NCBI GenBank assembly: GCA_037189585.1
Contig: JBBCJA010000018.1
Span: forward strand, 887-64,886
DNA: 64,000 nucleotides
Direction of reading: 5' to 3'
Source: Selenomonadaceae bacterium
GTDB taxonomy: Bacteria; Vulcanimicrobiota; Xenobia; Xenobiales; JADMJV01
Within the stretch, counting starts at the first letter, position 1. Each line of letters begins with the position of its first letter. The position numbers and the translations under genes were made by a program. The notes under the pieces are model-generated. The model was not told the DNA's origin and did not search any database. It was given only the letters and a program-made list of their open reading frames with translations. Shown in pieces: positions 5,414-54,606 of this stretch.

Positions 5414-5440
5414 AAGTCACACTCTTTGAGTGCTCGCGAA

Positions 5441-5467: not shown

Positions 5468-5480
5468 ATGCCCGAAGGGC

Positions 5481-5510: not shown

Positions 5511-5536
5511 TAGCACTCGTAAGCAGTCTTCCCGGC

Positions 5537-5611: not shown

Positions 5612-5639
5612 TTCTTTTAGGCGAAAACTGCTTACGAAG

Positions 5640-5665
5640 GGAGACGGTGATTCGTCTCCTTTTTC
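5640..5665 (+). terminator. Rho-independent terminator after tRNA-Pro
   Basis: ggagacg (5640-5646) pairs with cgtctcc (5653-5659) around a 6-nt loop, followed by T5 (5660-5664). Confidence 0.75.
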
Positions 5666-5685
5666 ATTTAGGAAGGGGAGGCGAC

Positions 5686-6141: not shown

Positions 6142-6142
6142 A

Positions 6143-6850
6143 CTATCGATCGCTTTGGCGTAAGGTTGAAGCGGCACCCCAGAGTAGCCCCGAGAAAAGC
6201 CATCCTGACACCGCGGTCGCGAAGAAGCTAAAGGTCGCGTCCAGGTAGCGGGAGGCCGCGAGCTCGGCTAGAGGGTTGAGCAACGTCAAGACCACCGTCC
6301 AGGCGACCGTCTGCAGACTGGCCATTTCTAAAATGTCGGCCGTTGGCTTTGCCCAGTCCAGGCGAACTGAAGGGACGGACGAGGGGCAGTATCCAGTAGC
6401 GGTCAGTAGGGGGACCGCGGTCAAAAAAACTGCCTGTGGATGCCCCAGGGCCAGGGTGGCGAAACAAAGTGAAACAAGAACCGGGAGGGTGGGGTTTTCC
6501 GCTTCCCGCTCGCGCCAAAGGACACGCAGCAGCCCGAAAACAAGGCTCAGCCGCCAAAAATAAGCCAAAAGAAGCCCCAGGCTCGCCGAACCGACCGCTC
6601 CGAGAGCAAGCCTATCGAGCCATAGACCCCGAAGCGTGATAGAGACCCAGAATCCGCCCAGACAGACGGTCCAGATACCATGCCAGACCCGTGAAACTTT
6701 GAAACCTAGCGTTATTCTGCCCAGAAGAACCGCCAGCAAGAGCCCTCCCCAAATAGGGAGCTCGGCGGACGACCAGGCTGAAGGGGACAAAGAGGCCAAC
6801 GCCACGCTCAGTAGCAGGCCCGAGAAGAGACAAAGCGCGGGAGCCAACAA
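6143..6850 (-). CDS. Polytopic membrane protein, unknown function
   Basis: 235-aa ORF with at least 6 hydrophobic segments. Confidence 0.6.
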   Translation of the reverse strand: MLAPALCLFSGLLLSVALASLSPSAWSSAELPIWGGLLLAVLLGRITLGFKVSRVWHGIWTVCLGGFWVSITLRGLWLDRLALGAVGSASLGLLLAYFWRLSLVFGLLRVLWREREAENPTLPVLVSLCFATLALGHPQAVFLTAVPLLTATGYCPSSVPSVRLDWAKPTADILEMASLQTVAWTVVLTLLNPLAELAASRYLDATFSFFATAVSGWLFSGLLWGAASTLRQSDR

Positions 6851-6856
6851 ACGAGC

Positions 6857-7735
6857 TTATTGGGCCCGCATATCCCGAGTCAGCCAGGAGAGAACCTCAC
6901 CCATCCGCTGACTCCAGGAATACTCGTCGTGACGCGCTCCCAGGGGTTCGTGGTAGCGTAGGTTTCCGTCGAGTTTCCAACCCTTGGACAAGAGCGCCTC
7001 TCCGGTCTCGCGAGTGCGGTCCCTGACATCCTGAACGCCGTTTCCACCCTCGGGCCTGGCGCCCAACTGGCCACCGCGCAAGGGGCGTTGTCCGAAATTG
7101 TCGCTCGAACCCTCTTCCGTCCCCATGTCCAGCCAGATACGCGGTTTAGGTCCATCGCCTTGCGGTGTCTTGAGGATCTGCTCGGCCATCTGGCCGCTGG
7201 CCCACCAGACAGAGGGCGAAAGCGCGCCGACTGCGGCGAAGACTCCCGGATGAGCGATACCGGTGGCGAGCGACACCAGCCCTCCCATGGAACTTCCCAG
7301 CAGAACCCGCTGCTTTGGATTGACCGAGTAGGTGCTCTCCACTGAGGGAAGCACTTCGTCGAGAAGAAAATCTTCGTAAACCTGACCCTTTCCGCCACCG
7401 TACTCAGGGTCGGCGACGTGACTGTAATCGTCAAGGCGCGAAGAGGCGTTATCGATGGCTACTAAAATCGCCTCAGGCATCCGCCCTTGCCGGGTCATCT
7501 GAGCCACGGTCTCGTCGACCTGCCATTCTTGGCCGGCGAATCCCGTCCGTCTGTCGAACATATTCTGCCCGTCGTGCATGTAGACCACGGGATACGACTT
7601 ATGTTCGGGGTCGTAGTTGTCGGGAAGGCGCACGGTCACGCCGCGCCGTGTTCCCAGGTGTTCGGAGGCTATCTCATGCCGAACGAATCGCCCGGTCAAA
7701 GTGCCTCCTGTTAATGGAGATGAGGAGATAAACAC
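6857..7735 (-). CDS. Esterase family protein (esterase D / enterochelin-esterase-like alpha/beta hydrolase)
   Basis: The VVYMHDGQNMF block and nucleophile elbow GSSMGG are typical of the putative-esterase family. Confidence 0.7.
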   Translation of the reverse strand: MFISSSPLTGGTLTGRFVRHEIASEHLGTRRGVTVRLPDNYDPEHKSYPVVYMHDGQNMFDRRTGFAGQEWQVDETVAQMTRQGRMPEAILVAIDNASSRLDDYSHVADPEYGGGKGQVYEDFLLDEVLPSVESTYSVNPKQRVLLGSSMGGLVSLATGIAHPGVFAAVGALSPSVWWASGQMAEQILKTPQGDGPKPRIWLDMGTEEGSSDNFGQRPLRGGQLGARPEGGNGVQDVRDRTRETGEALLSKGWKLDGNLRYHEPLGARHDEYSWSQRMGEVLSWLTRDMRAQ

Positions 7736-7850
7736 AAATTCATTTAAACAAACTCACCGCGAAGAATTTTGAACGTTCTGTGACATAGCTCACAAACAAG
7801 AGGTTCATGGCTCACTGCGAAAGGTCCCATTCCAGCTCTATGATGGGCTC

Positions 7851-8270
7851 ATGAAAACCGCCGCCCACGTGATGAACACCAGCTACTCGATGCTACCAGT
7901 GATGGTACTTCAGATTCGTCAAAATCAATTCAGCCTGGGACACTTGCGAGGTTTTCTTCATGAGGCGACTCGAGAATTAGCCGACAGAGACCAACGGTTT
8001 CTTCAGACTCGAACTCGTTACTTTCTGCAGCTACGCTCTCGCCGAGAACGACGCGAAATCGATCCGTGCTTCGAGGCCGAGGAAGCGGCTCTCATTCATG
8101 GCCGCCTGGCCCTGGACGCTCTGAAAGGTTTCATCAAAACTCGAAGACGTACTTTTCTCAACGAAGCGCTCTACAGCTTTGAAGCCTCGGAGTGGCAGTT
8201 CGAGCAGTTGCTCCGACTACGCATGCGCCTGACTCCGAACCAGCAAGAGGACCTACAACGCGCGGCCTAG
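7851..8270 (+). CDS. Hypothetical protein
   Basis: 139-aa ORF, helical and Arg-rich, with no recognisable domain. Confidence 0.45.
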   Translation: MKTAAHVMNTSYSMLPVMVLQIRQNQFSLGHLRGFLHEATRELADRDQRFLQTRTRYFLQLRSRRERREIDPCFEAEEAALIHGRLALDALKGFIKTRRRTFLNEALYSFEASEWQFEQLLRLRMRLTPNQQEDLQRAA

Positions 8271-8653
8271 CTCTGCAATAGGTGCAGATGGAGATAGTGT
8301 TCCGTCACCTGGCGACTTCCAAGAAAAACCTGGAAACGATAGGCTCCCGGCTCGGGGAAAACCATCTGGTTGACGTCGGACTGAACGTGGACTGTCTGCT
8401 CTTGAACTTCTAAAGTGAAATAGAGCTCTGGGCTTTGATGCAGCATCATCGTGTTGGCCGGATTAAAAATCTTAATCCTTTGCACGTGAAACCCCAATCC
8501 TCCACCCCAGGTCGACAACACCGAGAACCGAGGATATGTTATTGGAAAACTCTTGGCATAAAGATCGGTGAATAGCCCATAAAGGTTCAACTTCCCATCG
8601 GGAGCCGGAACAATGGAGTCACAGTAGAGGAAACTCTTGAGGATCGGTTCCAA
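8267..8653 (-). CDS. Hypothetical small beta-rich protein, downstream partner of the GHKL ATPase
   Basis: 128-aa ORF lying 3 nt downstream of the GHKL gene on the same strand. Confidence 0.6.
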   Translation of the reverse strand: MEPILKSFLYCDSIVPAPDGKLNLYGLFTDLYAKSFPITYPRFSVLSTWGGGLGFHVQRIKIFNPANTMMLHQSPELYFTLEVQEQTVHVQSDVNQMVFPEPGAYRFQVFLGSRQVTEHYLHLHLLQS

Positions 8654-8656
8654 AGA

Positions 8657-10264
8657 TTACCCTTCCATCTCTAGTGCGGCTTCCAACAGACGCGTTTCGG
8701 TTTCCGCGTCCAGTCCGTCGTCGATGGTGATAGCCTTGGTCATCAGATAGGCGGCCAGGACCGGGCGCTGTTGGTACAACTGAAAATGAGGTTCGACGAA
8801 CGGGTGAGTGACATTGACCAGCAGCACCTTCCCCTTAGCGAAACCCAACAAGAAACTCTTCCAATTTCTAGGCTTCTCCTGTTGCTCGGCAATAAAAACC
8901 AGCTCATCTTGCTGAACCTGCTCGAGATACAGCTTGTCGGCCAGGCCGCTGGAATGGCGGCCGAAGTCAGCCGGAACGATACCGCGGTAAGGACTTTTCA
9001 GATGGCGCATCAGGCGAGCCGTTTCCGCCAACAGACGCTGTTTATGGTCGGGCAGCTTCGCCAATACCTCGGGAGCGGCCCAAACCTGCTCTACCGGAAG
9101 GGCGGGTTTACCCTCGCCGATTCTAGCGAGCAAGCGCTCCAGTCCCGGCTCCTCCTCAGGGCCTTTCCATAAAAGGACGGGAACACCCAGTTCTTCGGAA
9201 ACTCGTTTGGTCAAAACATTGGAGGCCGAGCCGTAGAGGAACAGTTTGTGCTTTTTGACGGCTTTGCGTAAGGCGCGAATGCTCGCTCGTCCACCATCGA
9301 CGGTGGGCACCAGCGGCATATTCTCGTACTCCGATGGAAGCTTTCGTCCAAAACGAGATCCCAGGTAGCCGAACAACTGATAGTCGTGACTGTTGGCTGC
9401 TTTCTCGAAGAGCTGTTTACGAAAAGGTCCGTTGACGATCTCGGCCAAAAGAGCCATCGCCTTGTCGTAGTTCTTATCGGTCAGGACGTTGTCGCGGGTC
9501 AGGGTATGCTCGAGGTAGCGGCTACTGACTTTAAAGGCGACCCCCGGGAGATACTCCTTTTCCCCTTCACGCAGCGTCAAGCCTCGATTATAGAAACCGA
9601 AGAACGGCTCGGCGGCATCCGATGGCGCCACAACGATCTCGGTCTCACTCCCTTTGTGAACGAACTCGTAAGGATGGCTCAGGCGAAACTCTTGATTGAT
9701 CGACTCGCCATCGACCGTGATCTCTGATTCGACGTGTTTACACCAGTACTGAATCGTCTCGACGGAACGCTTCTTGGCCCTCTCGAACTCGGCTTGACTG
9801 ACCACCTTGACGATCTGGACTTGAGTTCCCTCGACGGGTGTCGACAAAATGATACGATCGAACTTGCGATCCTCGCGGAAGATCAAGCGCCAGTACTCGC
9901 CGTCTTTGCCCGTGTCGACGATAACGGCGTTGGGGTCGAGGGCGAAGACGGAGACGAAACCGATTCCAAACTTACCGACCTTGGTCAAGTCGTTCTCTTT
10001 CGAGGACGAAAACAGTTGAGTCAGCTTGGTATCAATAACACGGCGGGTCATCCCCTCTCCGGTGTCATCGACATGAATGATCATGATCCCCTGCCCGGGA
10101 GTTTCGGAGGGCTTGAACTCGAACCAGATATCAATAGTGGACGAGCCCGCGTCCATGCTATTTTGAATCAGCTCACGCAGACAAGCGTAAGGGTCGGTGA
10201 ACTGATTGACAAGATTTTCAAGGGTGTCGCCGGCTTCGATGGCGACCTGGGTATCCGAGGCCAA
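8657..10264 (-). CDS. GHKL (Hsp90/MORC/sacsin-like) ATPase domain protein
   Basis: N-box ELIQNSMDA, G1 box DDTGEGMT and G2 box GKFGIGFVS occur in the first 130 aa, followed by about 400 aa of unknown C-terminal region. Confidence 0.75.
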   Translation of the reverse strand: MASDTQVAIEAGDTLENLVNQFTDPYACLRELIQNSMDAGSSTIDIWFEFKPSETPGQGIMIIHVDDTGEGMTRRVIDTKLTQLFSSSKENDLTKVGKFGIGFVSVFALDPNAVIVDTGKDGEYWRLIFREDRKFDRIILSTPVEGTQVQIVKVVSQAEFERAKKRSVETIQYWCKHVESEITVDGESINQEFRLSHPYEFVHKGSETEIVVAPSDAAEPFFGFYNRGLTLREGEKEYLPGVAFKVSSRYLEHTLTRDNVLTDKNYDKAMALLAEIVNGPFRKQLFEKAANSHDYQLFGYLGSRFGRKLPSEYENMPLVPTVDGGRASIRALRKAVKKHKLFLYGSASNVLTKRVSEELGVPVLLWKGPEEEPGLERLLARIGEGKPALPVEQVWAAPEVLAKLPDHKQRLLAETARLMRHLKSPYRGIVPADFGRHSSGLADKLYLEQVQQDELVFIAEQQEKPRNWKSFLLGFAKGKVLLVNVTHPFVEPHFQLYQQRPVLAAYLMTKAITIDDGLDAETETRLLEAALEMEG

Positions 10265-39112: not shown

Positions 39113-39648
39113 GCGGTGGCGCCGTCCAGAGAATTCCGGCAGATCGACTTGCGCGAATCAATGCTGGGGAAGAAGCCGCCACGCTGGCCGAATGCCTTGC
39201 TGTCGATTTTGCAGAGCTCTTGAGTCATGTCTTGCCGGAAATAGGGAACGATGCCCTAGCCGAGATGAGACAAGCTGCATCAGTCGGCATCTCCCGACGT
39301 ATGCCCCTTGCCGCTCGCTTAATCACGGATCGACTCGGGTTTTCCGCTCAAGAACAACTTGCAGAACACTCGTCGGACACGGCGCGCGGCTGGGCCTGCT
39401 TTATGCTCGGCGCCGGCGAAGGAATGGACCTCCCCCAGCGGCTTGCGGCGATCAGGCCCTATGCCGATGCTCGACATTTCGGTGTACGCGAATGGGCATG
39501 GATGGCGGTTCGTCCCCACCTTGCGGCCGAACTTGAACTCGCGATCCCTTTGCTAGTCGGCGACTGGACATCTGACCCATCCGAGCGTATCCGCCGCTTT
39601 GCCTCGGAAGCTCTCCGGCCACGCGGTGTCTGGAGACAACAACGATGA
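39109..39648 (+). CDS. DNA-alkylation-repair (AlkD/HEAT-like) family protein, probably C-terminally truncated
   Basis: ADARHFGVREWAWMAVRPHL and RRFASEALRPRGVW blocks fit that family. The ORF stops 4 codons after RGVW, where homologues continue. The stop overlaps the next ATG. Confidence 0.45.
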   Translation: MSGGAVQRIPADRLARINAGEEAATLAECLAVDFAELLSHVLPEIGNDALAEMRQAASVGISRRMPLAARLITDRLGFSAQEQLAEHSSDTARGWACFMLGAGEGMDLPQRLAAIRPYADARHFGVREWAWMAVRPHLAAELELAIPLLVGDWTSDPSERIRRFASEALRPRGVWRQQR

Positions 39649-40150
39649 AGGCAAACCCACTGACTTACGAAGGTAAAGTAGCCCTTGTCACCGGAGCGGC
39701 TTCCGGTATGGGGCTGGCCACAGCCCAAGCTTTCGCGGAAGCTGGAGCCGCAGTCGTTCTCGCCGACTACCGAGTGGAGCTCGTCGAGCAGGAGGCCGAG
39801 AAGCTGCGGGCTTCCGGCGCGCAAGCTTTGGCGCTCGCCTGTGACGTGAGCGACGAGGCGTAGGTTGCCGCCATGATGGAACGGACGGTGGCCGAGTTTG
39901 GCCGCCTGGATGCCGCTTTCAATAACGCGGGCGTCATGGCCAAGCTGGCCCCCACCGCGGAGAGCACCCTCGAAGAATGGAACCGCGTTATCAACATCAA
40001 CCTGCGCGGCGTTTGGGCCTGCCTGAAACACGAGATCCTCCAGATGCAGAAGCAAGGAAGCGGCGCGATAGTCAACAACGCCTCGGTCGGCGCTCTGACC
40101 GGCACCGGGTATTCCTTCCTACATTGCCTCGAAACACGGCGTGATCGGGT
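39645..40150 (+). pseudogene. SDR oxidoreductase pseudogene (in-frame TAG, then frameshift and truncation)
   Basis: After VALVTGAASGMGLATA.. comes DVSDEA-TAG(39861-39863)-VAAMMERTVAEFGRLD in the same frame. Near 40113 the frame slips so that the YxxxK block SYIASKHGVIGL lies in another frame. SDR similarity ends near 40150. Confidence 0.65.
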
Positions 40151-40252
40151 TGATCCCGAGGACTCTTCGGAAGATAGGCTCTGCTACTTTGGAGGAAATT
40201 CTGACAAACGGAGAAATGTCTATCCAATGTATAGACAGAAGTATAGCTCTCT

Positions 40253-40495
40253 ATGAGAGCCAGGGTTACCAAGTGGGGAAATAGCCTGGGCTTGCGACTC
40301 CCCAAAGCTCTCTCCCAGCAACTTGGCATTGAGGAAGACGGATACGTGGAGATGGAGGTCTTCCAAGGGCAGTTAGTGATCCGGCCCTCCTCTCCCCCTC
40401 CGCTTTCTCTGGAAGAACTGGTCGGCCGCATTACCCCTGAGAATCGGCACGAAGAGATGGATTGGGGCGGGGCCGTGGGAGCCGAATTTTGGTAG
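40253..40495 (+). CDS. mazE: MazE/AbrB-fold type II antitoxin
   Basis: RVTKWGNSLGLRLPKAL is a SpoVT/AbrB swapped-hairpin motif. The protein is 80 aa with an acidic C-terminus. Confidence 0.8.
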   Translation: MRARVTKWGNSLGLRLPKALSQQLGIEEDGYVEMEVFQGQLVIRPSSPPPLSLEELVGRITPENRHEEMDWGGAVGAEFW

Positions 40496-40827
40496 CAGGC
40501 TATGTTCCCCAACGGGGAGATCTTGTTTGGATAGACTTTGACCCACAAAAAGGGCGTGAGCAGAGAGGGCGGCGCCCGGCCCTGGTTCTTTCTCCTCAAG
40601 AGTACAACCTCAAGAGTGCCCTGGCCTGGTTCTGCCCCGTCACCTCGAAGGTCAAGGGATATCCATTCGAGGTCCCCCTACCCGAAGGACAAAAGATCCA
40701 GGGAGTGATTCTGACTGACCAGGTCCGCAGCCTAGACTACAAAGGGCGGCGGGCTGAGTTTATCGCACGTGTAGACAACGAGATTTGCCAAGCCGCCCTG
40801 GCTCGTGCCAGAACACTTTTGAGTTAG
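40489..40827 (+). CDS. mazF: MazF/PemK-family endoribonuclease toxin
   Basis: YVPQRGDLVWIDFDPQKGREQRGRRPALVLSP...KGYPFEV...VILTDQVRSLD aligns along its length with E. coli MazF. TTG 40489 overlaps the mazE stop (the track start is 40462). Confidence 0.8.
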   Translation: MVAGYVPQRGDLVWIDFDPQKGREQRGRRPALVLSPQEYNLKSALAWFCPVTSKVKGYPFEVPLPEGQKIQGVILTDQVRSLDYKGRRAEFIARVDNEICQAALARARTLLS

Positions 40828-42568: not shown

Positions 42569-43393
42569 ATGAAACGCGCGGCGCTGGTCTATGATTTTGA
42601 CGGAACCTTAGCACGGGGGAACATTCAGGAGCATTCTTTCATCCCCGGACTCGGCATCGAGATCGAGGATTTTTGGCAGCGCTCGAACGGGGCGGCCCGC
42701 GAGCACGACGCCGATCAGATTCTCACCTATATGTATGAGATGATGGTTCAGGCCAAGTCTCGTGGGCTGAAGCTGACCCGAGACTCTCTCTTAGAGCACG
42801 GTCGTACCGTGCCATTTTTCGACGGGGTGGAGAGTTGGTTCGGCCGGGTGAACGCCTATGCTCAGAGTCAGGGGCTTGCCCTGGAGCACTACGTCATCAG
42901 CTCGGGCATCCGCGAGATGATCCTCGGTTGCTCCGTCGCTCAGGAGTTCCGGCAGGTTTTCGCCTCGAGCTTTCTCTACAATGAAGAGGGAGAGGCGGTA
43001 TGGCCGGCCTTGAGTATCAACTACACTACCAAGACCCAATATCTGTTCCGCATCAACAAAGGTATCGACAACTGCTGGGACAACGAGGCCATCAACCGCT
43101 GGGTTCCTCCCGGAGACCGCCGTCTGCCCTTTGAGAACATGGTGTTTTTAGGCGACGGTGAAACGGATATCCCCTCGATGAAGATGGTACGTCATCAAGG
43201 CGGTTACGCCGTGGCCGTGTTCGACCCCGAGAAATGGGATAGGCTGCAGTCGCGCATTACCGGCCTGATCGCCGAAGACCGCACCAACTTCGTCGCCCCT
43301 GCTGACTATTCCGAGGGCAGTCAGCTGGAAGTCACCGTGCGCGGCCTCCTGGGGCGAATCGCCGGACCAAAAGAGTGTACGACATCTTTATGA
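42569..43393 (+). CDS. HAD-superfamily hydrolase
   Basis: Motif I VYDFDGTLA and motif IV FLGDGETDIPSMK. Confidence 0.75.
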   Translation: MKRAALVYDFDGTLARGNIQEHSFIPGLGIEIEDFWQRSNGAAREHDADQILTYMYEMMVQAKSRGLKLTRDSLLEHGRTVPFFDGVESWFGRVNAYAQSQGLALEHYVISSGIREMILGCSVAQEFRQVFASSFLYNEEGEAVWPALSINYTTKTQYLFRINKGIDNCWDNEAINRWVPPGDRRLPFENMVFLGDGETDIPSMKMVRHQGGYAVAVFDPEKWDRLQSRITGLIAEDRTNFVAPADYSEGSQLEVTVRGLLGRIAGPKECTTSL

Positions 43394-43514
43394 AAGGGAA
43401 TCACGAATAGCCTTTGGGTCTCTCACCGCCTTGGCGGCTTTTCTTCTTTCTTGCTCGACCGCTGAAAGGAGCTTGAAGGCGGAACCGCCAGCCTTGGAAG
43501 CGAAGCGGCGGGGC

Positions 43515-44849
43515 ATGACTAGAGCTCGTCGGGGTATGCTGGTGGCCGGGGTGCTGTTGGCTCTTCTTTTCCTGGGCGGCTGGCTGGCTGACCGGGCTTG
43601 GAACAGGCAGGCCGAGGAGGATGTTCGACGGAGGCTGCTCGATTCGCTGAGCAACGACCAGAGAAGAAAACTGCTCAATGTATCTAAAGACGAACTTCTA
43701 CGTCAGGTCTCTGGAATCGAACAAGAGCTCCAGTGGCTTCAGTCCACTCCATGGGGAGCCGAGGTATGGGAGCAAGGTCGTCTCTTGGGACAGACACCGA
43801 TGCCCCGACCCAAGGGCGACACGACCTTAGAACTTCGCACTCCGTGGCGAAGGGCGACGGTTGGTCCTGGGGAATTGCAGGCGACCCTCTCCCCAAATCT
43901 CCTCACCCTGAGCTTACGCCTGGCTGGGCTGCTGGGGTTGGCTCTCATCGGGCTATCCTTTCGCTCTCGTCCCGAGCCTATCGAAGCCGTCGAAACCGTC
44001 GAGGCAATCGAGGAACGAAAGCCCGTTGCCGAGTCGGATCGCTTTGGAGACTTCGAGAGACTAGAGCTCTGCGGCGAAGGAAGCATGGGTACTGTCTACC
44101 GCGCCCGTTCGAGCAAAGCCGACAATCGTTCGGTCTACGCGCTGAAGATTCTCCATCCCCAATGGAGCCAGGCAGAGGAATTTCGCCAACGCTTCGAGCG
44201 AGAGTACCACATCTGCCGGCAGCTCGATAGCGACCGAGTGGTGCGGGTTCACGCCCACGGCGAAAAGGACGGTCGACTTTGGATGGTCATGGATTTCGTC
44301 GAAGGCCCTACCTTGACCGAGTGGTTGGCTTCAACCCCTCGTCAGGAGTGTGAGATTCTAGAGATAGCCGTGGCTATCTGCGACGGACTCTCCTACGCCC
44401 ACGGCCTGGGTATCGTGCATCGCGATCTTAAGCCCGACAACATCCTTGTCAGCGGCGAGAGGTCGCCCGTGATCACCGACTTTGGACTGGCTCGCAGCCG
44501 CCACTACGCTACCATCACCCAGGCCCATACCGTGCTCGGAACCCCCGCCTATATCGCCCCTGAGCAAGTCGAAGGGTCCACCATCAACGGCCAAGCCGAT
44601 CTCTATTCTCTGGGCTGCATACTTTACGAAGCACTCGCCGGGAGACCACCGTTCCAAGGCGAGGCTATGCAAGTGGTGTTAGCTCAGCTCACCAAGCAGC
44701 CAGAGCCTCTCTCCGAGTACGTCAAGGTTTCTCCGGCCTGCGAGGCTTTAGTTCATCGCCTTTTGGCCAAAGACAAGTCGAGCCGCTACGCCTCCGCCGA
44801 AGAGGTGCGCCAAGATCTGCTGGCCGCCAATAAGGGCGCGATCGCTTGA
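43515..44849 (+). CDS. Hanks-type Ser/Thr protein kinase with an N-terminal TM region
   Basis: [17 protein letters not shown] and GTPAYIAPE are present. ATG 43515 chosen (track TTG 43431). Confidence 0.85.
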
Positions 44850-46129
44850 AGTCTCGCCAGTCGTTGATCAGGCTCCGCCCTCAGTAGCTTCTCCACTAAT
44901 TCCGCGAAAGCCGGTGGACAGTCGAGGCGCACTTGGGCCAACGGCCGATACCGCTCCTGAGCTTGCGCGGCTAAAATTTGTAGCCCTTCGCACTCGGCAT
45001 ATGGTCCAGCTCCACAAGCCCAGGCGTACAAAGTACATCCCAAGGCGTAGTAGTCCGAAGCGGCCACAGCGCTGCCTTGAAGCTGCTCAGGCGCCATAAA
45101 GCCCAAAGTTCCCGAATGGCCGCTAGTCTCTCCCTGCTCCGACAGCCGCCCAGCGACCCCGAAGTCGAGAAGATGGGCCTTCCCTCTTGCATCAATGATC
45201 ACGTTGGCAGGCTTAAGATCGCGATGCACGATACCCTTGTCGTGGGCGTAATCGAGCGCCGTGGCCAGTTGCTCCGCCCAAACCTCGAGCTGTGCGAACG
45301 ACGGCCTAACGATCTCCTCACTTCTTCTTCCTTCCACCAGTTCCGTGACGAGCCAGACAAAATCTGTGCTCTCGCCCCAGTCCAAAAGATGAACGATGTG
45401 CGGGTGGGAGAGAGTTCTCCAGACCTCCACTTCGTCGCGGAAGCGGTGACGCGCCTCTGGGTCATCGGTCCAATCGGAGCGCAATACCTTCATCGCCAGT
45501 GGCTCTCCCCCATCCAAGCGGCGCACACGGTAGACGCGGCTCATACCTCCCCGCCCAAGCTCTCCCTTGATTCTATAGCCGAACAGCTCCACTCCCGGGT
45601 GCAACTCTTTTCGAGCTAGCGACTCGCTCAGACGTCGCTGTCGGCGTAGAACCGGGCGAACCCTAAAGAACCCAAACCCGGCAAGGATGAGCACAACGGA
45701 AAGGAGCGGAGCGAAGTCGCGCGCCGCGTAGCACAGAGGCGACAGAACCCACCACCTGGAACGCATCTCCACCATCCGTTCACCCCGAGCGAGCTCCTCA
45801 GGGGAAAGATGAACCGTCTCTTCATGGTATCCTGGCAAGGAGAGAATTAAGGTAAAGTCCGCCCTCTCCTCAAGGCCGATAGGGAGAGGGCCTGGAGTGT
45901 ACCCAATGGGGTTTCTGTGGAATCCGCTCACGCTCATGGAGTAGGTATCGACTCTAGCGCCGCTCGGGCGGCTCCGGAGATAGATGGCCCCGAGAGCTTC
46001 TCTTTTGGGCCAAGAAAGCCAAATTTGCCCCAAGAGCAGAATGCAACTTATCGCGGCTATCCCATAAGTTTGACGACGCAACTTCTCCACTCCGGCTAGT
46101 GCAGCATTCGGCCAACACCTCCCTGCCAT
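44786..46129 (-). CDS. Ser/Thr protein kinase with an N-terminal PEGA-like domain and TM helix
   Basis: [17 protein letters not shown] and [10 protein letters not shown] are present. The PEGA-like block is SRPSGARVD...GYTPGPLPI...[13 protein letters not shown]. Confidence 0.85.
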
Positions 46130-46197: not shown

Positions 46198-46602
46198 GTG
46201 AGGAAAAGGAGCAAATATGGATTCTCCTTAGCGGAGTTGATGCTCGCTTTTGTCGTGCTTTCCGTTCTCTCGGTCGTGCTTATCGGAGTCGTTCCCTCCA
46301 CGATTATCGGTCTCAAGGGGGCAAGCCAAAGGGCCAATGCGGCACTGCTGGCTCAAACCCAACTCGAGGAGCTTCGCCGCACCGGATTTAGCTCCGTCAC
46401 CCCGACTCTCGAACCGTATCCCACAGCCGTGATGGAGCGGACCGACTATACCTACCGAGTCGAGGTGGAAGAGGCCCGACTGAGCAGCGGAGAGGCCATG
46501 AGTCCTGATGTCGCCAAGCTAGCCAGCGTGGTGGTTGAGTGGCGGAGTAAGAGCGGACCCCAGACTTATACCGCCAGCGCGGTGATGTTCAAGCGGATAT
46601 GA
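46198..46602 (+). CDS. Minor pseudopilin, GspI-like size (prepilin-type N-terminus)
   Basis: Leader MRKRSKYG followed by [23 protein letters not shown] (Gly-1, Glu+5). Confidence 0.8.
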
Positions 46603-47213
46603 GCCGTCAAAGTGGAGTAAGCTTAGTGGAGGTCATGATCGCCGGCGGCCTCCTTTTACTCGTCACCGCGATGATGGTCGCTCTGCTCCTACCCTCCTTT
46701 TCTCTCTTCCGCAAACAGGGAGGGCAGTCGGATGCCTATCGCGTGTGTCTGCAAACCATCGAAAAATTTCGCCTGGAGATGCTCAACACTCAACTGGAAT
46801 GCCTTACTATCACCCCGGATCTGCAAGCCATCGCCTGGCAGGAGACTCTGGCGGATCCTCCTTTCTCCGTGACCAGTGGAGAGCCGCTCATGAATGACAT
46901 CTTCACAGTTTTGCACTACCGTGATCGACGAGTGCTAATAACGCGCAGCGAACCGAGTGGGACCGGAACCTCCACTATCCCCTCGCGACTGGGCCTTGAT
47001 GAGGTGATGGAATTGCGTGCTCGTCAAACGAGGACCCTGGCCCGCGATATCACCGCTTTTGAAGTTCGCGACAACGACCCGGACTCGCCCCTCACAACGC
47101 CTCCCATTCGTATGTCTTTGACCTGCACTATCGATACCAAGGGAAGAGCCAGCAACGACGAAGAGTCCTTTAAGATGAACGTAACCGTCACGCCGAGGAG
47201 CCAACGCTGGTGA
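46599..47213 (+). CDS. Minor pseudopilin, GspJ-like size
   Basis: Leader MSRQSG followed by VSLVEVMIAGGLLLLVTAMMVALLL (Glu+5). A 4-nt start/stop overlap occurs on both sides. Confidence 0.75.
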   Translation: MSRQSGVSLVEVMIAGGLLLLVTAMMVALLLPSFSLFRKQGGQSDAYRVCLQTIEKFRLEMLNTQLECLTITPDLQAIAWQETLADPPFSVTSGEPLMNDIFTVLHYRDRRVLITRSEPSGTGTSTIPSRLGLDEVMELRARQTRTLARDITAFEVRDNDPDSPLTTPPIRMSLTCTIDTKGRASNDEESFKMNVTVTPRSQRW

Positions 47214-49090
47214 GAATTTCAATTCGTGGAGCTGTCTCCCTACTCTCCGTACTCTGCCTGGTGGGGATCGTGATGATTCTCGCTTCGGCCATGGTCGGAG
47301 TGTTCTCGATGAATCTGAACATGACCCAAAAGTCGTTCAACGGCTCCATCGCCGAATCCGAAGCCGAAGCTGGGATAGCCGAAGCGCTTTACCGTATCAC
47401 CGACGCCAATGACAACAATATCGACAACAGTCAACAGCCGCCCGCGGTAAAGTACGGCCGCTCCAGCGAGACGATTCGAGGCACCATCACCCCGAAACTC
47501 AGTCCAGAGGAAGCTTACCACGTCGTAACTTTTGCCGAGGGGACCGGATTCCCACATTCCACCAATAACACCTATCTCGATCGCGATACCGGCTCTTTGG
47601 GACGGGCCGTGCCTGACGGGATGTTTCACATCGTCTCCACCGGCTACTGCCGTGGTCAATATCGCACCATCGAGGCCTTGATCTCCAAACCTCCCTTTCC
47701 TTTTGGTCTGGCCACCTCCGGAAAGTTGGTGTCGCCCGATCCTTTCGTCGTCAAAGGGGTCTCCTCGATATCCGACCTACTCGACGACAAGGAAGATCGC
47801 CCTGGACATATTCTTTGTAACTCCCCAGAAGGCGTAACGATCGGACAGAGCGATCCGCCTCGACCAACCTACATCAGTGGTTTCGTGAAATCGGTCGGAC
47901 CGATCTCCATCGAGCAGCCCGCCCAAGTTTTAGGAGGGTTGCGCCCAGGAGCCGATGCCTCCACTCTTGCCACTATCGATGTCAAGAAGTTCAGGAATGA
48001 AGGTCAGCCCGGAGTTGTGACGATCAACGATCCGAACTTCGTCAGAGATCAGACCATGGACATCATGTACTTTTACTCTGGCAACCTGCTCACCTACGAG
48101 CGTTCGGTCAAGCTCAACAAGGCCTTTCTTTATGTCGAGGGCGACCTCTTGATCAAGGGTCCGGTCACTGGTGAAGGCCTGATCGTGGTGGACGGAAACG
48201 TCACCTTCGGCTCAGGCACAGCCCTAGATGGCGCCAACAAGATGGCGGTACTCGCCTCCGGCGACATCACGATTCGGGGGGCCAACAACTATTTCACCGG
48301 CCTCATTTACTGCGGAGGAGACTTTACAGCCTCCAACGTGACGGTGGTAGGGAATACCGTGGTCAACTCCCCCGATCCTGAGAAAGGTAAAGCGAACCTG
48401 GAGAATGTGACGATGATCAGCAACACCGAAACAGCGGACATGACGATCACCATCACTTCAAGTAGTCACGCCGAGGGGCAGGATAACGCCCCCGATGCTG
48501 TCATTCCGCTCGGTATCACCTCAGACACCTTCGGGTTACCCACGGACTGGGATTACTCCAATGGTGGCGGTGGTGGGCTTGGTGGCTGGATCGACCCAAA
48601 AAATCCCCAAAGCATGTACGTGGAAATTTTGATGGATCTCTGGCAGGCCTCTCTTGACCCCTCTTCCCAATTCCCCGTCCTGGGAATGAAACCGTCTGGA
48701 AAAGGTGTCGACGGTATCTGGGATCAAGCGACCGCTCTCTACGAGCTCGCGAGCCAAAATCGAAGTGTCAGTGACCAGATCAACCAGTTGGAATCGAGCA
48801 AAGAATCCGCGCAGGGAAACCATGAACTCTTGGCCCAAATTGAAGCTCAAATTCAAGCACTCGAAGCATCACAAGCCGAGGCCAAGATCGTCTTTCAAAC
48901 CGCGGCGGCGGCTCTCGTCAATTCTATTTACAACCACATGAAAGCCCACGCCGACGGCGATGGAACGTACGACGACGGCACTGTGGACATGGACATCGTC
49001 ATCAAGCAGAGATTCAACCTCAACGAGTATCTTCCCGAGAGCGAACGGGTCAAGATCGCCTATTGGCGGGTTCATCACCGCCGCTTCTAG
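47210..49090 (+). CDS. GspK/PilX-like large minor-pseudopilin-family protein (626 aa)
   Basis: Hydrophobic N-terminal helix, then SIAESEAEAGIAEALYRI (PilX_N/GspK-like). The central repetitive beta-rich block is paralogous to 269..2014. A C-terminal coiled coil is followed by the LPESERVKIAYW motif. Confidence 0.65.
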   Translation: MRISIRGAVSLLSVLCLVGIVMILASAMVGVFSMNLNMTQKSFNGSIAESEAEAGIAEALYRITDANDNNIDNSQQPPAVKYGRSSETIRGTITPKLSPEEAYHVVTFAEGTGFPHSTNNTYLDRDTGSLGRAVPDGMFHIVSTGYCRGQYRTIEALISKPPFPFGLATSGKLVSPDPFVVKGVSSISDLLDDKEDRPGHILCNSPEGVTIGQSDPPRPTYISGFVKSVGPISIEQPAQVLGGLRPGADASTLATIDVKKFRNEGQPGVVTINDPNFVRDQTMDIMYFYSGNLLTYERSVKLNKAFLYVEGDLLIKGPVTGEGLIVVDGNVTFGSGTALDGANKMAVLASGDITIRGANNYFTGLIYCGGDFTASNVTVVGNTVVNSPDPEKGKANLENVTMISNTETADMTITITSSSHAEGQDNAPDAVIPLGITSDTFGLPTDWDYSNGGGGGLGGWIDPKNPQSMYVEILMDLWQASLDPSSQFPVLGMKPSGKGVDGIWDQATALYELASQNRSVSDQINQLESSKESAQGNHELLAQIEAQIQALEASQAEAKIVFQTAAAALVNSIYNHMKAHADGDGTYDDGTVDMDIVIKQRFNLNEYLPESERVKIAYWRVHHRRF

Positions 49091-49133: not shown

Positions 49134-49146
49134 GCGTGCTCTCGGG

Positions 49147-49289
49147 ACCGGCTGCAGTCGCGCATCACCGGTCTGATAGCCGAAGACCGCACCAACTTCG
49201 TCGCCCCCGCCGACTACTCCGAGGGAGTCAGCTGGGGGTAACCGTGCGCGGTCTCCTCGGACGGATCGCCGGACGAAAAGTACGTCATC
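49147..49289 (+). pseudogene. Fragment: 3' end of a HAD hydrolase gene homologous to 43238-43393
   Basis: It encodes DRLQSRITGLIAEDRTNFVAPADYSEG, identical to the intact gene, with mostly third-position differences. A 1-nt deletion then shifts the frame. There is no 5' part. Confidence 0.75.
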
Positions 49290-49312: not shown

Positions 49313-50584
49313 CTAGTTACCAGAGGGCTCCGCTGCGAGCTTCTCAGGTCGGTCCACCCGCCCCATCATGAGTACCGCGCCGCTGCCGCTATGTCGTAGG
49401 AGAAAGGCGAAAGGCCGCTCGAAGGTCAAAACCTTTGGTGGGGGTTTGACAGCCGACCCTCTCCGGCTCACGACCACGGCTGTGGCAGCGGCGGCTTCCG
49501 TACCCTCTTCATCCACTTTCACGTATGTCTTGTGATAGATGTTGAGCTCAAGTCGCTCGGGACTATCCAGGATCAGCATGCGGGTCAGATCGGGGTTCTT
49601 CACGACCTGCGCTAGACCGATTTCTCGCCAGGCCTCGGTCAGCTCGAAGGTGGGCACCTCGAATTCGAAGCGTGGTAGTCTCAGGGTGACCTCCTCCGCG
49701 GATTCGCTCGGCTCGAGGTAGAAAGAGGAGAGCGCCTTGTCGGGCTCTATTCCCTGGTCCGGCAATAAAAAGACCATCTCGAAGCCCTCCTGATAGGGCA
49801 AGGTCACCCCGGTCGCCCCCCGCAGGCGGAAGCTGGCGACCCCTGGGCGTGTCATCATCGGGGTTTGTAGTGTCTCTCCCGAGGAAGTCGTGAAGGTTCC
49901 CGGTCGAGTGTGTTCTTTCTCGAACTTACTCCGCCAGCTCCCCTTGAAGTGCAGGGCGGAGACCAGCACGCTGACGGTATCGCGACCGAGCGTGGGTAGA
50001 AAATCTTTGATCAGACCGGCGGTACGCTCGGCCACCCAGTCGTTGATGACTTGTGTCGCCCTCTTCGGGTCAGTGGAGAAAGGTAGAACTTGAACAGGAT
50101 CGGTCAGTAACGGCTTGATCTTGACGGAGTAACTCTCGACAAGCTTGACCGACTGATCCAGATAAATTTTCTGGGCCAAAGCCAGAGATTCGGTCTCGTC
50201 CAAACCGCCGGCTAGCTTCGTCAGCTCCCCGAGGACCTCTCCTTTCAGCCCGGTGGCCGCGGCGATCTCCTCTTTGGTTCTCCCTTCAGCTCCCTCTTGC
50301 ATCAGACCTAACAGAAGGTAAGAGCCCAGCGGACTGACAGCCAGGTTTCCGGGCTTCTTCCCGGCCACCGCTTCGTACAAGTTCTTGTTGAAGTTAGCCA
50401 ACCCAACACTAACCTCTTTAGAGATAACGAGCTCGGGGACTGCGGAGGGTGGAGGTGCCACCAGCTTCTGAACGGGTGATGGAGAGGCTGTCTGCTGTGG
50501 CCCCGGTGGGAGCGAGGAAGGTTGGCAAGCGGAAATAAGGAGGCCTCCGAAGATGCCCAAAGCCAAGAGTTTGAGTGAGTTCAT
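49313..50584 (-). CDS. Serpin (serine protease inhibitor) lipoprotein
   Basis: Reactive-centre-loop hinge EEGTEAAAATAVVV, serpin blocks FKGSWRSKF and FERPFAFLL, and lipobox LLISAC. Confidence 0.85.
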   Translation of the reverse strand: MNSLKLLALGIFGGLLISACQPSSLPPGPQQTASPSPVQKLVAPPPSAVPELVISKEVSVGLANFNKNLYEAVAGKKPGNLAVSPLGSYLLLGLMQEGAEGRTKEEIAAATGLKGEVLGELTKLAGGLDETESLALAQKIYLDQSVKLVESYSVKIKPLLTDPVQVLPFSTDPKRATQVINDWVAERTAGLIKDFLPTLGRDTVSVLVSALHFKGSWRSKFEKEHTRPGTFTTSSGETLQTPMMTRPGVASFRLRGATGVTLPYQEGFEMVFLLPDQGIEPDKALSSFYLEPSESAEEVTLRLPRFEFEVPTFELTEAWREIGLAQVVKNPDLTRMLILDSPERLELNIYHKTYVKVDEEGTEAAAATAVVVSRRGSAVKPPPKVLTFERPFAFLLRHSGSGAVLMMGRVDRPEKLAAEPSGN

Positions 50585-52005: not shown

Positions 52006-54606
52006 CTAGAACCGGTCAGGCACTTCTAGTCGAACTCTCAAAAATGAAGATCGAAGTGACGTGGTGGGGACATCGACAAAGAGAAATTTCTCTCCACCAG
52101 GAGCCGCGTCCCAAAGCCTACTATCCGTGGGTGAGGCGTGAGGGAGCTGGAGTAGCCGCGTGGGGCTCTCGGAATAATCCGGCTTGAGGACCCAAAGGGC
52201 TCCATCACGTTCAAACAAGAGCCTACCGTCCTGTAAAAAGACAGGGTGCCGACCCGGCCCGACACGCCGAAGTTCTCCTTCCGGCAGTCCGCGAAGGTAG
52301 ACCTCTTCCAAGCCGCTTTCGTTAGAAACAAAAGCCAGGATCTTCTCATCCGTGGAAACGTAAGGATGGCGTTCATCAAAAGGCGAGCTAACAACGGCTC
52401 GAGGCTCCTCGCCCGGTTTGACGACGTACAGGTCATGGTCACCGGCCTCGGTCTCTTGTTCAAACCAGATCCCCGAAGGCGTCCAACATTTCACGAACTG
52501 ACGCCGGGAACTCGTGGTGATTCGAGTCATCCGACCAGGTTTATCGAGGTCGAGAACGTAGATGTTGAAAGGTCCCTCTTGATCGGAGCTCACCGCCATA
52601 GTCGTGCCCTCGGGGGCGAAGGCAAAGCTTACGGTATTACCGCGATGAGTCACTCGGCGATCGAGGCGAGTCGAAAGCTCTCGGAACCATAGGGCGCGTA
52701 CATCGTCGTCAAAGCGGCGATAGCAAAGCACTTTGCCGTTCGGCGACAGGCGTGGCTCGACTCCATCAAACAACTCATCGGAGAGTGTCTCGCCCTGAGC
52801 GTCAATCCAAAGAACATGTCCCTCTCCCGTCTCCTCCGGCTCAAGATAGGCAAGCGTCCCCTGAGCCGCGCTGAAACCCGCCGCTCCTTTCTCGACGTCA
52901 CACCAGATTCGGGGAAGAATGACCCGATCGTTTTGCAGCAGCGCACCATCCCGAACCGCAAAGGTTCCTGTATCGGTAGGCCAACCCGAGTAGGCCTGGG
53001 TGGCGACCACACTGCGCTGACCGGTGGAGAGTTCGAGTCGCTCCACTCGACCAGAGGCATAGGTTCCACCGGAGCGCCGAGAAAAGTACAGCCCGTCTTC
53101 ATCGGCTCTGGGCCAACCCAGGACCGAATCTCCCGACTTGGGGTCGGGTGTCAGGAGCTTCTGAACCTTTCCTCCTCCTCCGCTAGCGACGCTGCTAATC
53201 CCACCCGAGGTTGTGGCAAAAACGATCCTCTCATCAACTGTCCAAGTGCCCCCCAGAAACTGATCGATGCGCAGGTCGTCGACGACTCTAGTCACCGGCC
53301 CCCCCTCCAAGGAGACCCAGACCAGACCCTTGCGGCCCAAAAATCCGAGACGGTCTCCCTGAGGAGAAAAGAAGGGGAAAGCTCCGTTCTCACTTCCGAC
53401 GATCAATCGACCCTCGGCCTGGTCGAACGGTTGAAAGAAAAGTTGGCGCCCCTTCTCGGTGAGAACGGGAACGACCACAGCCCGGCCATCCGGACGAAGT
53501 GCCGGTAGCGGATGTTCCACAGCCAAACTGATCCCTGGAGGGAGTGAAACGGAAAGATAAAGCGGTGTGGGAGAAGGTGAGAAAAGTGCCCTGCTTGGCG
53601 CGCTCTCCTGCCCTAGCAGAAAACCTACGCCGACGGCAATTCCAACTAGACCGAGTATGGCGCTGGTCAACCCGAGACGGAAGGGAGAGCTCCCTTTCAC
53701 CTCGGGGCGTGGGTGAGCGCTCGTCTGTCTGAGAGAGCTAGAGCTCGGCTGCTTGAGCGAGACGACTTCAGCCCCGGAGGTCGACACGAGCCTTTCTCCA
53801 ACCTCAGCCATGCTTTGCGGACGATCCTCCGGAGCTTTCCGTAGGCAATCTTTCAGTAAAGCCAAGAGTGAGCCCTGGTCGGGCACCAGGCTCCAGTCCG
53901 GCTCGTTGGTGAGTATGGCGTTGAGAGTCGCCGCGAGATTGTCCTTGGGGAAGGCCAATCGTCCCGTCACGGCCTCGTACAGACAACAACCCAAAGACCA
54001 GATCTCGGTCCGAACATCAGCGGACACCGCCCTGATCTGTTCCGGAGCAAGATAGGGAGCGGTCCCAACCAGGGTGCCTTCTCGCGTCGAGAACTCCGCC
54101 GCGCCGGTCAAGGTACCTTGCAGCTCCTTAGCCAACCCGAAGTCGAGTAGCTTCACCCGGTCGCGCGCCCCAATCATGATATTTCCAGGCTTGAGATCGC
54201 GATGAAGAATCTGACTTTGATGAGCTGTCTCCAGCGCCTCGGCCGCCTGGGCGAAGATCCGGCGAGCGCGGTCGAGGGGAATGGGCCCGGACTCAAGAAG
54301 CTTCTCCAAGGTCTGTCCCTCGACAAGCTCAAGAATCAGACATAGGGTACCCTGGTCGTCCTCCAGGTCGTAGATAGCGCCTATCCCGGGGTGATTGACC
54401 GCCGCGAGCAGCCGAGCCTCACGTTGAAAACGCGCGACTTTCTCCGGCTCGCTTGTCATCGACTCGGGCAAGACCTTGACAGCGACATGGCGCTCGAGGC
54501 GGGTGTCGATGGCTCGATAAACGGCCCCCATTCCACCTTCACCGATCTTCCCAAGGATGCGATACGGTCCGATCTCTTTGTCGGAAGCTAGACTCAACGA
54601 CGCCAA
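52006..54606 (-). CDS. Ser/Thr protein kinase fused to a TolB-like (PD40/WD40-like) beta-propeller region
   Basis: HRDLKPGNIMI, DFGLAK and GTAPYLAPEQ are present. A TM helix is followed by about 500 aa of propeller-like repeats. Confidence 0.85.
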   Translation of the reverse strand: MASLSLASDKEIGPYRILGKIGEGGMGAVYRAIDTRLERHVAVKVLPESMTSEPEKVARFQREARLLAAVNHPGIGAIYDLEDDQGTLCLILELVEGQTLEKLLESGPIPLDRARRIFAQAAEALETAHQSQILHRDLKPGNIMIGARDRVKLLDFGLAKELQGTLTGAAEFSTREGTLVGTAPYLAPEQIRAVSADVRTEIWSLGCCLYEAVTGRLAFPKDNLAATLNAILTNEPDWSLVPDQGSLLALLKDCLRKAPEDRPQSMAEVGERLVSTSGAEVVSLKQPSSSSLRQTSAHPRPEVKGSSPFRLGLTSAILGLVGIAVGVGFLLGQESAPSRALFSPSPTPLYLSVSLPPGISLAVEHPLPALRPDGRAVVVPVLTEKGRQLFFQPFDQAEGRLIVGSENGAFPFFSPQGDRLGFLGRKGLVWVSLEGGPVTRVVDDLRIDQFLGGTWTVDERIVFATTSGGISSVASGGGGKVQKLLTPDPKSGDSVLGWPRADEDGLYFSRRSGGTYASGRVERLELSTGQRSVVATQAYSGWPTDTGTFAVRDGALLQNDRVILPRIWCDVEKGAAGFSAAQGTLAYLEPEETGEGHVLWIDAQGETLSDELFDGVEPRLSPNGKVLCYRRFDDDVRALWFRELSTRLDRRVTHRGNTVSFAFAPEGTTMAVSSDQEGPFNIYVLDLDKPGRMTRITTSSRRQFVKCWTPSGIWFEQETEAGDHDLYVVKPGEEPRAVVSSPFDERHPYVSTDEKILAFVSNESGLEEVYLRGLPEGELRRVGPGRHPVFLQDGRLLFERDGALWVLKPDYSESPTRLLQLPHASPTDSRLWDAAPGGEKFLFVDVPTTSLRSSFLRVRLEVPDRF

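Follow-up and report, generated by a model that had tools for sequence, protein, structure and literature searches.

The stretch of DNA analysed here (the window) comprises 64,000 nucleotides of contig JBBCJA010000018.1 (assembly GCA_037189585.1; Vulcanimicrobiota in the GTDB lineage) and carries on its forward strand a cassette of three genes for proteins of 134, 204 and 626 amino acids (aa), which we consider here as a candidate minor-pilin complex of a type IV filament. The open reading frames (ORFs) of this trio lie where a first-pass annotation of the window had placed them and overlap by 4 nt at both junctions, as ATGA and then GTGA. Its description of the two smaller products as classic prepilins with Gly-1 and Glu+5 likewise holds, the processing signals being KYG/FSLAE and QSG/VSLVE (the slash separates positions -1 and +1). 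The 626-aa product has a pilin-type leader and helix with Gly-1 and without Glu+5, and the combination of two Glu5 prepilins with one large Glu5-less subunit is the I/J/K logic which that annotation had recognised. Three features of the locus had escaped it, namely the solenoid and ComZ identity of the large subunit, a conserved pair of kinases and a flanking direct repeat (Table 1).

Table 1. Positions in the window of the trio, the linked kinases, the flanking repeat and the other cassette genes
Feature	Position	Strand	Remarks
Direct repeat, left copy	43236..43373	+	Last ~46 codons of a HAD-like 274-aa gene (42569-43393)
Kinase A, Ser/Thr, 472 aa from the first TTG	43431..44849	+	Pfam Pkinase 176.7 bits, domain 209-459
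Kinase B, Ser/Thr, 447 aa	44786..46129	-	Pfam Pkinase 168.5 bits, domain 185-429
I-like minor prepilin, 134 aa	46198..46602	+	GTG start; leader MRKRSKYG/FSLAELML (Gly-1, Phe+1, Glu+5)
J-like minor prepilin, 204 aa	46599..47213	+	Leader MSRQSG/VSLVEVM (Gly-1, Glu+5)
Large K-like (ComZ-like) putative cap subunit, 626 aa	47210..49090	+	GTG start; IRG/AVSLL, no Glu+5
K subunit aa 1-164: leader, long α1 helix (aa 11-64), pilin-like β head (aa 88-159)	47210..47701	+	Model
K subunit aa 165-417: β-solenoid of ice-binding-protein type	47702..48460	+	Model
K subunit aa 467-580: long helical hairpin (coiled coil)	48608..48949	+	Model; hypervariable sequence
K subunit aa 596-626: terminal β-strands, L-N-x-Y-L-P-E-S-E...W motif	48995..49087	+	Model; conservation
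Direct repeat, right copy	49144..49280	+	Frame-broken remnant, 54 nt past the 626-aa gene stop
Set 2 J-like prepilin, 254 aa	54833..55597	-	NQRG/MTIMEL; Pfam N_methyl 17.0 bits, below cut-off
Set 2 I-like prepilin, 150 aa	55588..56040	-	KRQRG/FSLMEI; Pfam N_methyl 29.8 bits
Set 2 large subunit, 985 aa	56028..58985	-	RRG/STLAM, no Glu+5; ComZ-like fold (predicted)
Solitary K-like paralogue, 581 aa	269..2014	-	RHG/LSLGG, no Glu+5

Prepilin signals of the trio and predicted fold of its large subunit

The 134-aa protein scored 24.5 bits on the Pfam N_methyl model (PF07963, cut-off 21.2) and 17.1 bits on TIGR02532 (cut-off 16.3), and in the 204-aa protein the class III motif was recognised by eye, its N_methyl score of 16.5 bits falling under the same 21.2-bit cut-off. 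None of the seven cassette proteins of the window carries a family-specific Pfam domain, two of them reaching the generic N_methyl model only, and such genes are missed by automated annotation. A public gene caller begins the first gene of the trio at Met15 (120 aa), by which the prepilin signal is lost; we favour the longer GTG start because the F-S-[LM]-x-E motif is kept in nine orthologues. In the family alignments F9, S10 and E13 of the I-like proteins and L9 and E11 of the J-like proteins are invariant. Some I-like orthologues (L001 8986-9396 and L008 5255-5662; L numbers denote the loci used for comparison) have Ala in place of Gly at -1 (R-A/F-S-L-A-E). A scan for promoters and terminators gave counts that were not above those of shuffled sequence.

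Membership of GspI, GspJ and GspK proper, families to which the first-pass annotation had likened the trio, was not borne out: the trio misses every curated family cut-off by a wide margin, and for J and K the sequence similarity is confined to the N-terminal helix. The 134-aa protein aligns near full-length (aa 8-118) with the XpsI/GspI model NF047828 at a sub-threshold E of 5.7e-6, with 26.4 bits against a cut-off of 150, and reaches Verru_Chthon cassette protein B at E 2.1e-6, again sub-threshold. Across the I family, weak matches to XpsI/GspI, ComGE, PilV and Verru_Chthon protein B recur in 6 to 9 of 9 members, all below cut-off. The best NCBIfam match is Verru_Chthon protein B (8/9 members, best E 5.5e-7); XpsI is matched by eight of the nine, ComGE by all nine and the gspI model TIGR01707 by a single member (E 0.0073), and alignment with E. 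coli GspI in hhalign spans 87 columns at 46% probability. The J family aligns with E. coli GspJ over the N-terminal 25 residues only (hhalign), and its NCBIfam matches include neither GspJ nor PilW models; they are weak matches to ComGF (up to 4/8 members), GspG/H, Verru_Chthon protein C (4/8 members) and, in one member, HpsC. Profile searches of PDB sequences with the I and J families returned the N-terminal pilin helix or coiled-coil noise only. Verru_Chthon proteins A-D (TIGR02596, TIGR02598-TIGR02600) are encoded in multi-copy cassettes of Verrucomicrobia that combine small prepilin-type proteins with a very large protein. The trio comes from another phylum and stays below the Verru_Chthon cut-offs (protein B 28 vs 51.4 bits, protein C 13.9 vs 256.5 bits), and no large subunit matched protein D.

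In a confident AlphaFold2 model of the 626-aa protein, built on 55 sequences (predicted local distance difference test, pLDDT, 88; predicted template modelling score 0.74), the β-rich core and the coiled coil noticed in the first-pass annotation take the form of a solenoid and a coiled-coil hairpin. The modelled elements follow one another as head strands (88-159), solenoid (165-417), hairpin and conserved terminal strands (596-622). The hairpin helices (467-482, 501-533 and 538-579) have pLDDT values around 90, and the terminal strands span residues 596-603 and 615-622, with L604, N605 and P609 nearly invariant. Sequence conservation follows this division, as column entropy in the 626 family is 1.3-1.5 over head, solenoid and terminal strands (head 1.3-1.45, terminal strands 1.4) and 2.6-2.8 in the hypervariable hairpin and linker. 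Many residues of the first 164 are invariant, and the leader consensus of the family is RG-x-S-L-M-S. The invariant T-P-R-x-x-x-W at the very C-terminus of the J family and the Trp-containing end strand of the K family could be matching interface elements.

Comparison of the model with known structures gave ice-binding proteins (values of 15-16, over the solenoid only), ComZ (6qvi; 14.8 over 236 residues), tapirins (10.2 and 8.6), the S. sanguinis minor pilin PilA (8.3), GspK (3ci0_K; 8.2) and XcpX (6.9). ComZ is the best whole-architecture match and also ranks first in a Foldseek search of the whole PDB (E 2e-5). The pilin head of the model superposes on that of GspK 3ci0_K, in agreement with the structural resemblance to GspK that the earlier annotation had expected of the large proteins. 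In ComZ of Thermus thermophilus the pilin domain is GspK-like and takes up, ahead of its last strand, a solenoid of ice-binding type, whereas the insertion of GspK is α-helical (PMC6561018). The 626-aa model departs from GspK proper, as no α-helical insertion in the pilin β-sheet is seen and its place is taken by a β-solenoid followed by the helical hairpin; the predicted joining of an ice-binding-type solenoid to a GspK-like head is the architecture of ComZ and of solenoid-type PilX. By analogy with ComZ and cyanobacterial PilX, the terminal strands would rejoin the pilin head. At the sequence level, the curated GspK model NF037980 gave the 626-aa protein 17.6 bits against a cut-off of 130 (aa 9-93 only, E 0.002), E. 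coli GspK aligned with the K family over 37 N-terminal residues only (hhalign), and the K-family profile found no homology to ComZ among PDB sequences at E up to 10, returning coiled-coil noise only.

Paralogous cassettes and filament machinery in relatives

The window holds several cassettes whose large subunits differ greatly from one another, as the first-pass annotation had pointed out. Its second set is real and starts, on the minus strand, at 58985 and not at 58970, and its solitary K-like gene is present as given. In set 2 the large gene comes first and is followed by I and J, opposite to set 1. Its I-like protein matched XpsI (E 2.3e-6), PilV (E 7.9e-5) and GspI (E 0.0037) among NCBIfam models; the I-like gene is kept behind the large gene in L016 and L017, and the J-like gene is conserved in both (58% and 40%, respectively).

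The claim of three paralogous sets stands in part. True paralogy is seen between the 626-aa and the 581-aa protein (BLASTP E 4e-29, 25% identity over residues 6-382), which have a common C-terminal L-P-x-E-[DE]-R-[IV] motif, as had been noticed from the LP-E-[DE]-R signature of two of the large proteins. For the 985-aa protein no BLASTP similarity to either was found, and alignment of its family with the 626 family in hhalign is marginal (45%, E 2e-4, first ~140 residues only); its predicted structure gave the same fold matches as that of the 626-aa protein. At the level of the fold the three large subunits group together. All three combine a pilin leader and helix with the lack of Glu+5 that marks a cap subunit (G/AVSLL, G/LSLGG and G/STLAM in the 626-, 581- and 985-aa proteins, respectively).

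The 581 family comprises 44 clusters, and in L015 its gene is preceded by I- and J-like genes to form a trio. In the window the gene is solitary, with a 242-aa non-pilin gene upstream and an MqsR-like ORF downstream; partners lying past the window edge were considered and rejected, as this downstream ORF is not a pilin. It is a truncated ORF (window 1-183, - strand) that by eye resembles what we take to be an MqsR-type toxin (…ELGFDRTQIRDVIQTMKPTHFYKSMT) and seems frameshifted at a T-run.

Gene order and sequence of the trio itself are conserved, at 29-76% identity and far beyond chance, in at least 10 further loci, all of them from Vulcanimicrobiota/Eremiobacterota. The 626 family has 64 close clusters, all unannotated and without Pfam domain, whose only names are those of Eremiobacterota or 'Armatimonadetes' metagenome-assembled genomes (MAGs). 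With the family profile, an exhaustive HMMER search reached 1,943 clusters (50% identity) at E up to 1e-3 and 661 at E up to 1e-30. Most of the 150 matches listed align to profile positions 4-415, the region of helix, head and solenoid, and the matches thus differ in their C-terminal parts. Names sampled from this superfamily were Vulcanimicrobiota, Eremiobacteraeota and Candidatus Xenobiia, all with 'hypothetical protein' as description, and the NCBI locus tags of two members sampled differ by 16. A GTDB scan likewise reached this phylum only, save for two contigs that are probably misbinned. In MAG BWSM_10 a second paralogue of the 626 type (L007 9965-11908) is split into ORFs of 163 and 474 aa with no I-like gene, J-like gene or kinase nearby, and is probably a pseudogene or an assembly frameshift.

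The first-pass annotation had called the trio stand-alone, which is true within the window but not of the wider family, since in relatives cassettes of the set 2 and 581 types adjoin ATPase and platform genes. In L016 a 64% orthologue of the 985-aa gene is divergent from an operon (1-9661, - strand) that encodes a Ser/Thr kinase, a 269-aa protein of unknown type, two T2SSF paralogues, T2SSE, an I-like and a J-like protein and a large set 2 paralogue (more than 742 aa); major pilin, PilMNO and secretin are not visible within 10 kb. L017 has, beside a set 2 orthologue, genes for a large solenoid protein, a kinase, an FHA-T2SSF protein, a second kinase, a GAF-T2SSF protein and I- and J-like proteins; behind these, on the other strand, comes a gene for a 581/626 superfamily member of 587 aa. 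The two platform proteins of this locus thus carry N-terminal FHA (492 aa; 2080-3558) and GAF (538 aa; 5004-6620) fusions, each preceded by a kinase gene. In L001, the locus with the 76% trio orthologue, a 581-type large gene and then I, J, kinase and T2SSF genes, in this order, lie 4-10 kb upstream of the trio. The ATPase of the relatives scored 462 bits on PilB and 441 bits on GspE, and their platform proteins, of GspF/PilC class, scored best on GspF. All these scores are below the equivalog cut-offs and do not separate a type IVa pilus from a type II secretion system (T2SS).

A membrane kinase pair and a direct repeat around the trio

Two membrane Ser/Thr kinase genes precede the trio. Kinase A, which the public gene call starts at 43494 (451 aa), has predicted transmembrane segments at 34-55 and 157-177, by hydropathy, around a stretch of ~100 extracytoplasmic residues that precedes the kinase domain. 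For kinase B a single strong transmembrane segment is predicted at about 132-161, and its gene is divergent from the trio across a 68-bp gap. In tblastn synteny, near full-length kinase B-type orthologues stand beside the trio in 10 of 12 independent loci (L001, L002, L005 and L008-L014), and kinase A-type matches accompany them in all of these save L005, where the contig ends. Orthologues of kinase A that include its non-kinase N-terminal part adjoin the trio in L001, L002 and L008-L012. The order of kinases and trio is that of the window in L001, L002, L005, L008, L009 and L010; in L011 and L012 the two kinases are central, with J and I on one side and K on the other, and in L013 and L014 one or both kinases lie downstream of the trio. 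The two loci that lack the linkage, L006 and L007, are extra paralogues of one MAG. Survival of the linkage through three arrangements argues for functional coupling of the kinases and the trio, which we infer on this ground.

A PEGA-domain sensor in the extracytoplasmic segments of the kinases, an idea formed by eye, was dropped when no Pfam match was obtained at E up to 10. An inverted repeat of 48 nt with 90% complementarity links kinases A and B at the catalytic loop (HRDLKPDN; 44394-44441 and 45203-45250) and could reflect kinase paralogy or gene conversion. Elsewhere in the window (18274-19590, + strand) a gene encodes a protein of 438 aa in which an adenylate/guanylate cyclase domain is joined to two FHA domains; this protein and the Hanks kinases of the window, of which there are at least three, point to heavy phospho-threonine signalling in this genome.

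Kinases A and B and the I, J and K genes are exactly enclosed by a ~139-nt direct repeat, whose copies are 84-90% identical with one 1-nt indel (a deletion in the right copy), have sharp boundaries and lie 5,908 bp apart. The genes flanking the module differ among the window, L001 and L002. From this bracketing and the differing flanks, the five genes seem to have arrived by insertion or relocation of a single block; an integrase was not seen. Convergent with the end of the trio is a gene for a 423-aa serpin (window 49313-50584, - strand) with an N-terminal signal or lipoprotein-like sequence, an adjacency that is not conserved in L001 and L002.

Assignment of the trio and competing explanations

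We propose, with a probability of roughly 0.68, that the trio is the core minor-pilin complex of a type IV filament machine of the PilB/GspE and PilC/GspF class, one that initiates filament assembly and forms the cap at the tip. The tip location is suggested by analogy with GspI-J-K and ComZ-PilA2, and ligand and kinase mechanism are equally conditional in the scheme we envisage. A prepilin peptidase encoded elsewhere would cleave the trio subunits, and mature I, J and K would then associate in the membrane via their N-terminal helices, with the Glu5-less large subunit in the most distal position, above which nothing could be added. The complex would prime polymerisation of a major pilin encoded elsewhere and end up at the filament tip, where the rigid solenoid may serve as a plug and solenoid and variable hairpin together may form the ligand-contacting surface of an adhesin or receptor. 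With several cassettes in one genome (626, 581 and 985 types), filaments would differ in the tip that they carry. Most plausibly, and this is the weakest step of the scheme, the two kinases would couple an extracytoplasmic or membrane signal to the use of the tip module by phosphorylation, their targets possibly being FHA-bearing partners such as the FHA-fused platform proteins of relatives.

A number of observations weigh against this assignment. Among the window proteins covered by domain scans and precomputed annotations there is no match to T2SSE, T2SSF, prepilin peptidase or secretin, a search of the window by motif and tblastn for ATPase, platform protein and prepilin peptidase was negative, and the window holds no further prepilin-type gene or major pilin, all in keeping with what the first-pass annotation had reported. 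An H-type (GspH/FimU) adapter is not present either. The trio would be linked to a machine only through orthology to other genomes, and even there the 626-type cassette never stands in one operon with machinery, the nearest T2SSF lying ~8 kb away (L001). The trio reaches no curated model of GspI, GspJ, GspK, PilV, PilW or PilX, the 204-aa protein owes its 'J' label to position and size only, and the low Foldseek TM-score to ComZ (0.2) means that the domain orientation differs. As regards the kinases, no FHA protein lies beside the trio in the window, the genome is rich in Ser/Thr kinases, so that some chance adjacency is to be expected in any single genome, and kinase 866 (52006-54606), tried as a conserved partner of set 2, was rejected because it is not conserved in L016 and L017.

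Given the ComZ-like fold, the trio could instead form the tip of a competence pseudopilus, with the 626-aa protein as a ComZ-equivalent DNA receptor on a short DNA-uptake filament and the 134-aa protein as its PilA2/ComGE-like partner. The best whole-architecture match and the ComGE and ComGF matches described above (9/9 I and up to 4/8 J members) would agree with such a role. The 626-aa protein is net acidic (D+E 68 vs K+R 46), which speaks against this role; ComZ itself binds DNA without an obvious basic patch (PMC6561018). The missing sequence homology to ComZ and the lack of comEA, comEC and dprA nearby, in the window or the compared loci, also count against it, and a family of ~1,900 clusters, in which each genome has several divergent copies and the hairpin is hypervariable, is unexpected of a single conserved DNA receptor. 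We regard a competence function as improbable.

The same subunits could also be GspI/J/K equivalents at the tips of T2SS pseudopili, where the large subunits would select secreted substrates and no surface pili would be made. XpsI is the best NCBIfam match of the I-like proteins among named systems, the platform proteins of relatives score best on GspF, the head resembles that of GspK, and the window is rich in genes for secreted hydrolases, serpin and proteases. On the other side, the ATPase of the relatives scores slightly better on PilB than on GspE, all below cut-off, and GspC, GspL, GspM, secretin and GspG/H were not seen beside any cassette; the trio lies outside any gspC-O operon and, unlike GspI-GspJ-GspK (PDB 3ci0, 5vtm), is without GspG and GspH. 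A solenoid with a long hairpin is hard to fit into a periplasmic piston, an argument made for the bulky solenoid of ComZ (PMC6561018), and the only cultured member of the Eremiobacterota is a diderm with true type IV pili that serve in phototaxis (PMC9758169). We give a T2SS function of the trio a small chance of being right.

Least probable by our estimate is a reading without any filament, with three membrane-anchored surface proteins whose helix is a signal anchor and which form a ligand-binding receptor partner of the two kinases: it would suit the tight, rearrangement-resistant kinase linkage, the enclosure of five genes as one unit by the repeat, the 626-type cassette without machinery in its operon and the 581-aa paralogue without I or J partner in the window, but it leaves aside the family-wide conservation of the Gly-1/Glu+5 signals in both small proteins, the fit of the Glu5-less large subunit to cap logic, the paralogous cassettes within ATPase and platform operons and the fold matches to known tip pilins. 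To our knowledge, Glu5 has no role outside filament assembly.

The preferred assignment, a filament-priming and tip complex, has its closest precedents in Thermus and cyanobacteria and a more remote one in GspI-J-K. It has been argued that ComZ, with the GspI-like PilA2 as its binding partner, can have no place but the tip of the filament (PMC6561018). Compared with the Thermus set (ComZ-PilA2 with PilA1 and PilA3; PDB 6qvi), the large subunit shows no detectable sequence homology to ComZ and carries behind the solenoid an extra helical hairpin of ~115 residues that is hypervariable; the trio has the order I-J-K without a PilA1/GspH-like gene or adjacent major pilin, is tied to two Ser/Thr kinases and has many paralogues. 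In cyanobacteria two alternative core minor-pilin sets prime two different filaments, and their Glu5-less PilX, with an ice-binding-like solenoid before the last strand, is proposed to be a tip plug or adhesin; one PilX subfamily is greatly enlarged and has extra domains (bioRxiv 10.64898/2026.02.12.705559). The likeness to these sets, including the HpsA-D/PilX-EPS type, lies in several alternative cassettes per genome and a Glu5-less solenoid cap, and the enlarged PilX subfamily parallels the 985-aa type. The present cassettes come from another phylum, have no detected sequence relationship to the cyanobacterial sets (no direct comparison was made), have far more paralogues, and show a kinase pairing and a helical hairpin not described there. 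With these precedents it is reasonable to see the coexisting cassettes as alternative tip modules with different large K-type subunits, as the first-pass annotation had suggested. The ComZ/solenoid-PilX type of cap, so far recorded in Thermus and cyanobacteria, would thereby extend to an almost uncultured phylum and to ~1,900 clusters now named 'hypothetical'. This supports a view now taking shape, in which a bacterium adapts a single filament machine to different tasks by exchanging its priming and tip complex.

The kinase pairing recalls other surface nanomachines to which Hanks-type kinases and FHA proteins are genetically tied, here through the kinases that flank the cassettes and the FHA-platform fusion of L017. 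PpkA-Fha1 is the threonine-phosphorylation pathway of type VI secretion. In the Arn network of the Sulfolobus archaellum, a Ser/Thr kinase and FHA proteins exert control (PMC5300886, PMC5007285). The Sulfolobus FHA protein, however, is a transcription-level regulator and not a platform fusion, and no phosphatase or FHA gene lies beside the trio in the window. Our literature searches found no earlier description of Eremiobacterota pilins, of a link between FHA or Hanks kinases and PilC in bacteria, or of FHA- or GAF-fused platform proteins. Against these precedents, the new elements are the phylum, how far the family has expanded, the hairpin with its hypervariable sequence, the travelling kinase pair and, in relatives, the FHA/GAF-fused platforms. 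A more far-reaching version, which we consider unlikely, is that Xenobiia/Eremiobacterota possess a filament wired to phospho-signalling, with a library of exchangeable tip modules that each move with their own Hanks kinase pair, the kinases sensing tip engagement or the membrane pool and switching a shared machine via FHA-PilC readers. If true, such a kinase-gated modular 'sensory pilus' would be of a kind not described in bacteria. The kinase pairing and the FHA/GAF platforms offer a concrete, testable starting point for asking how Hanks-type signalling may control pilus assembly after translation.

Upstream of the module, two adh_short fragments of 72 and 127 aa (window 39645-40827, + strand) suggest a disrupted short-chain dehydrogenase/reductase gene, and behind them lies a MazE/PemK toxin-antitoxin pair (precomputed Pfam list, L003).

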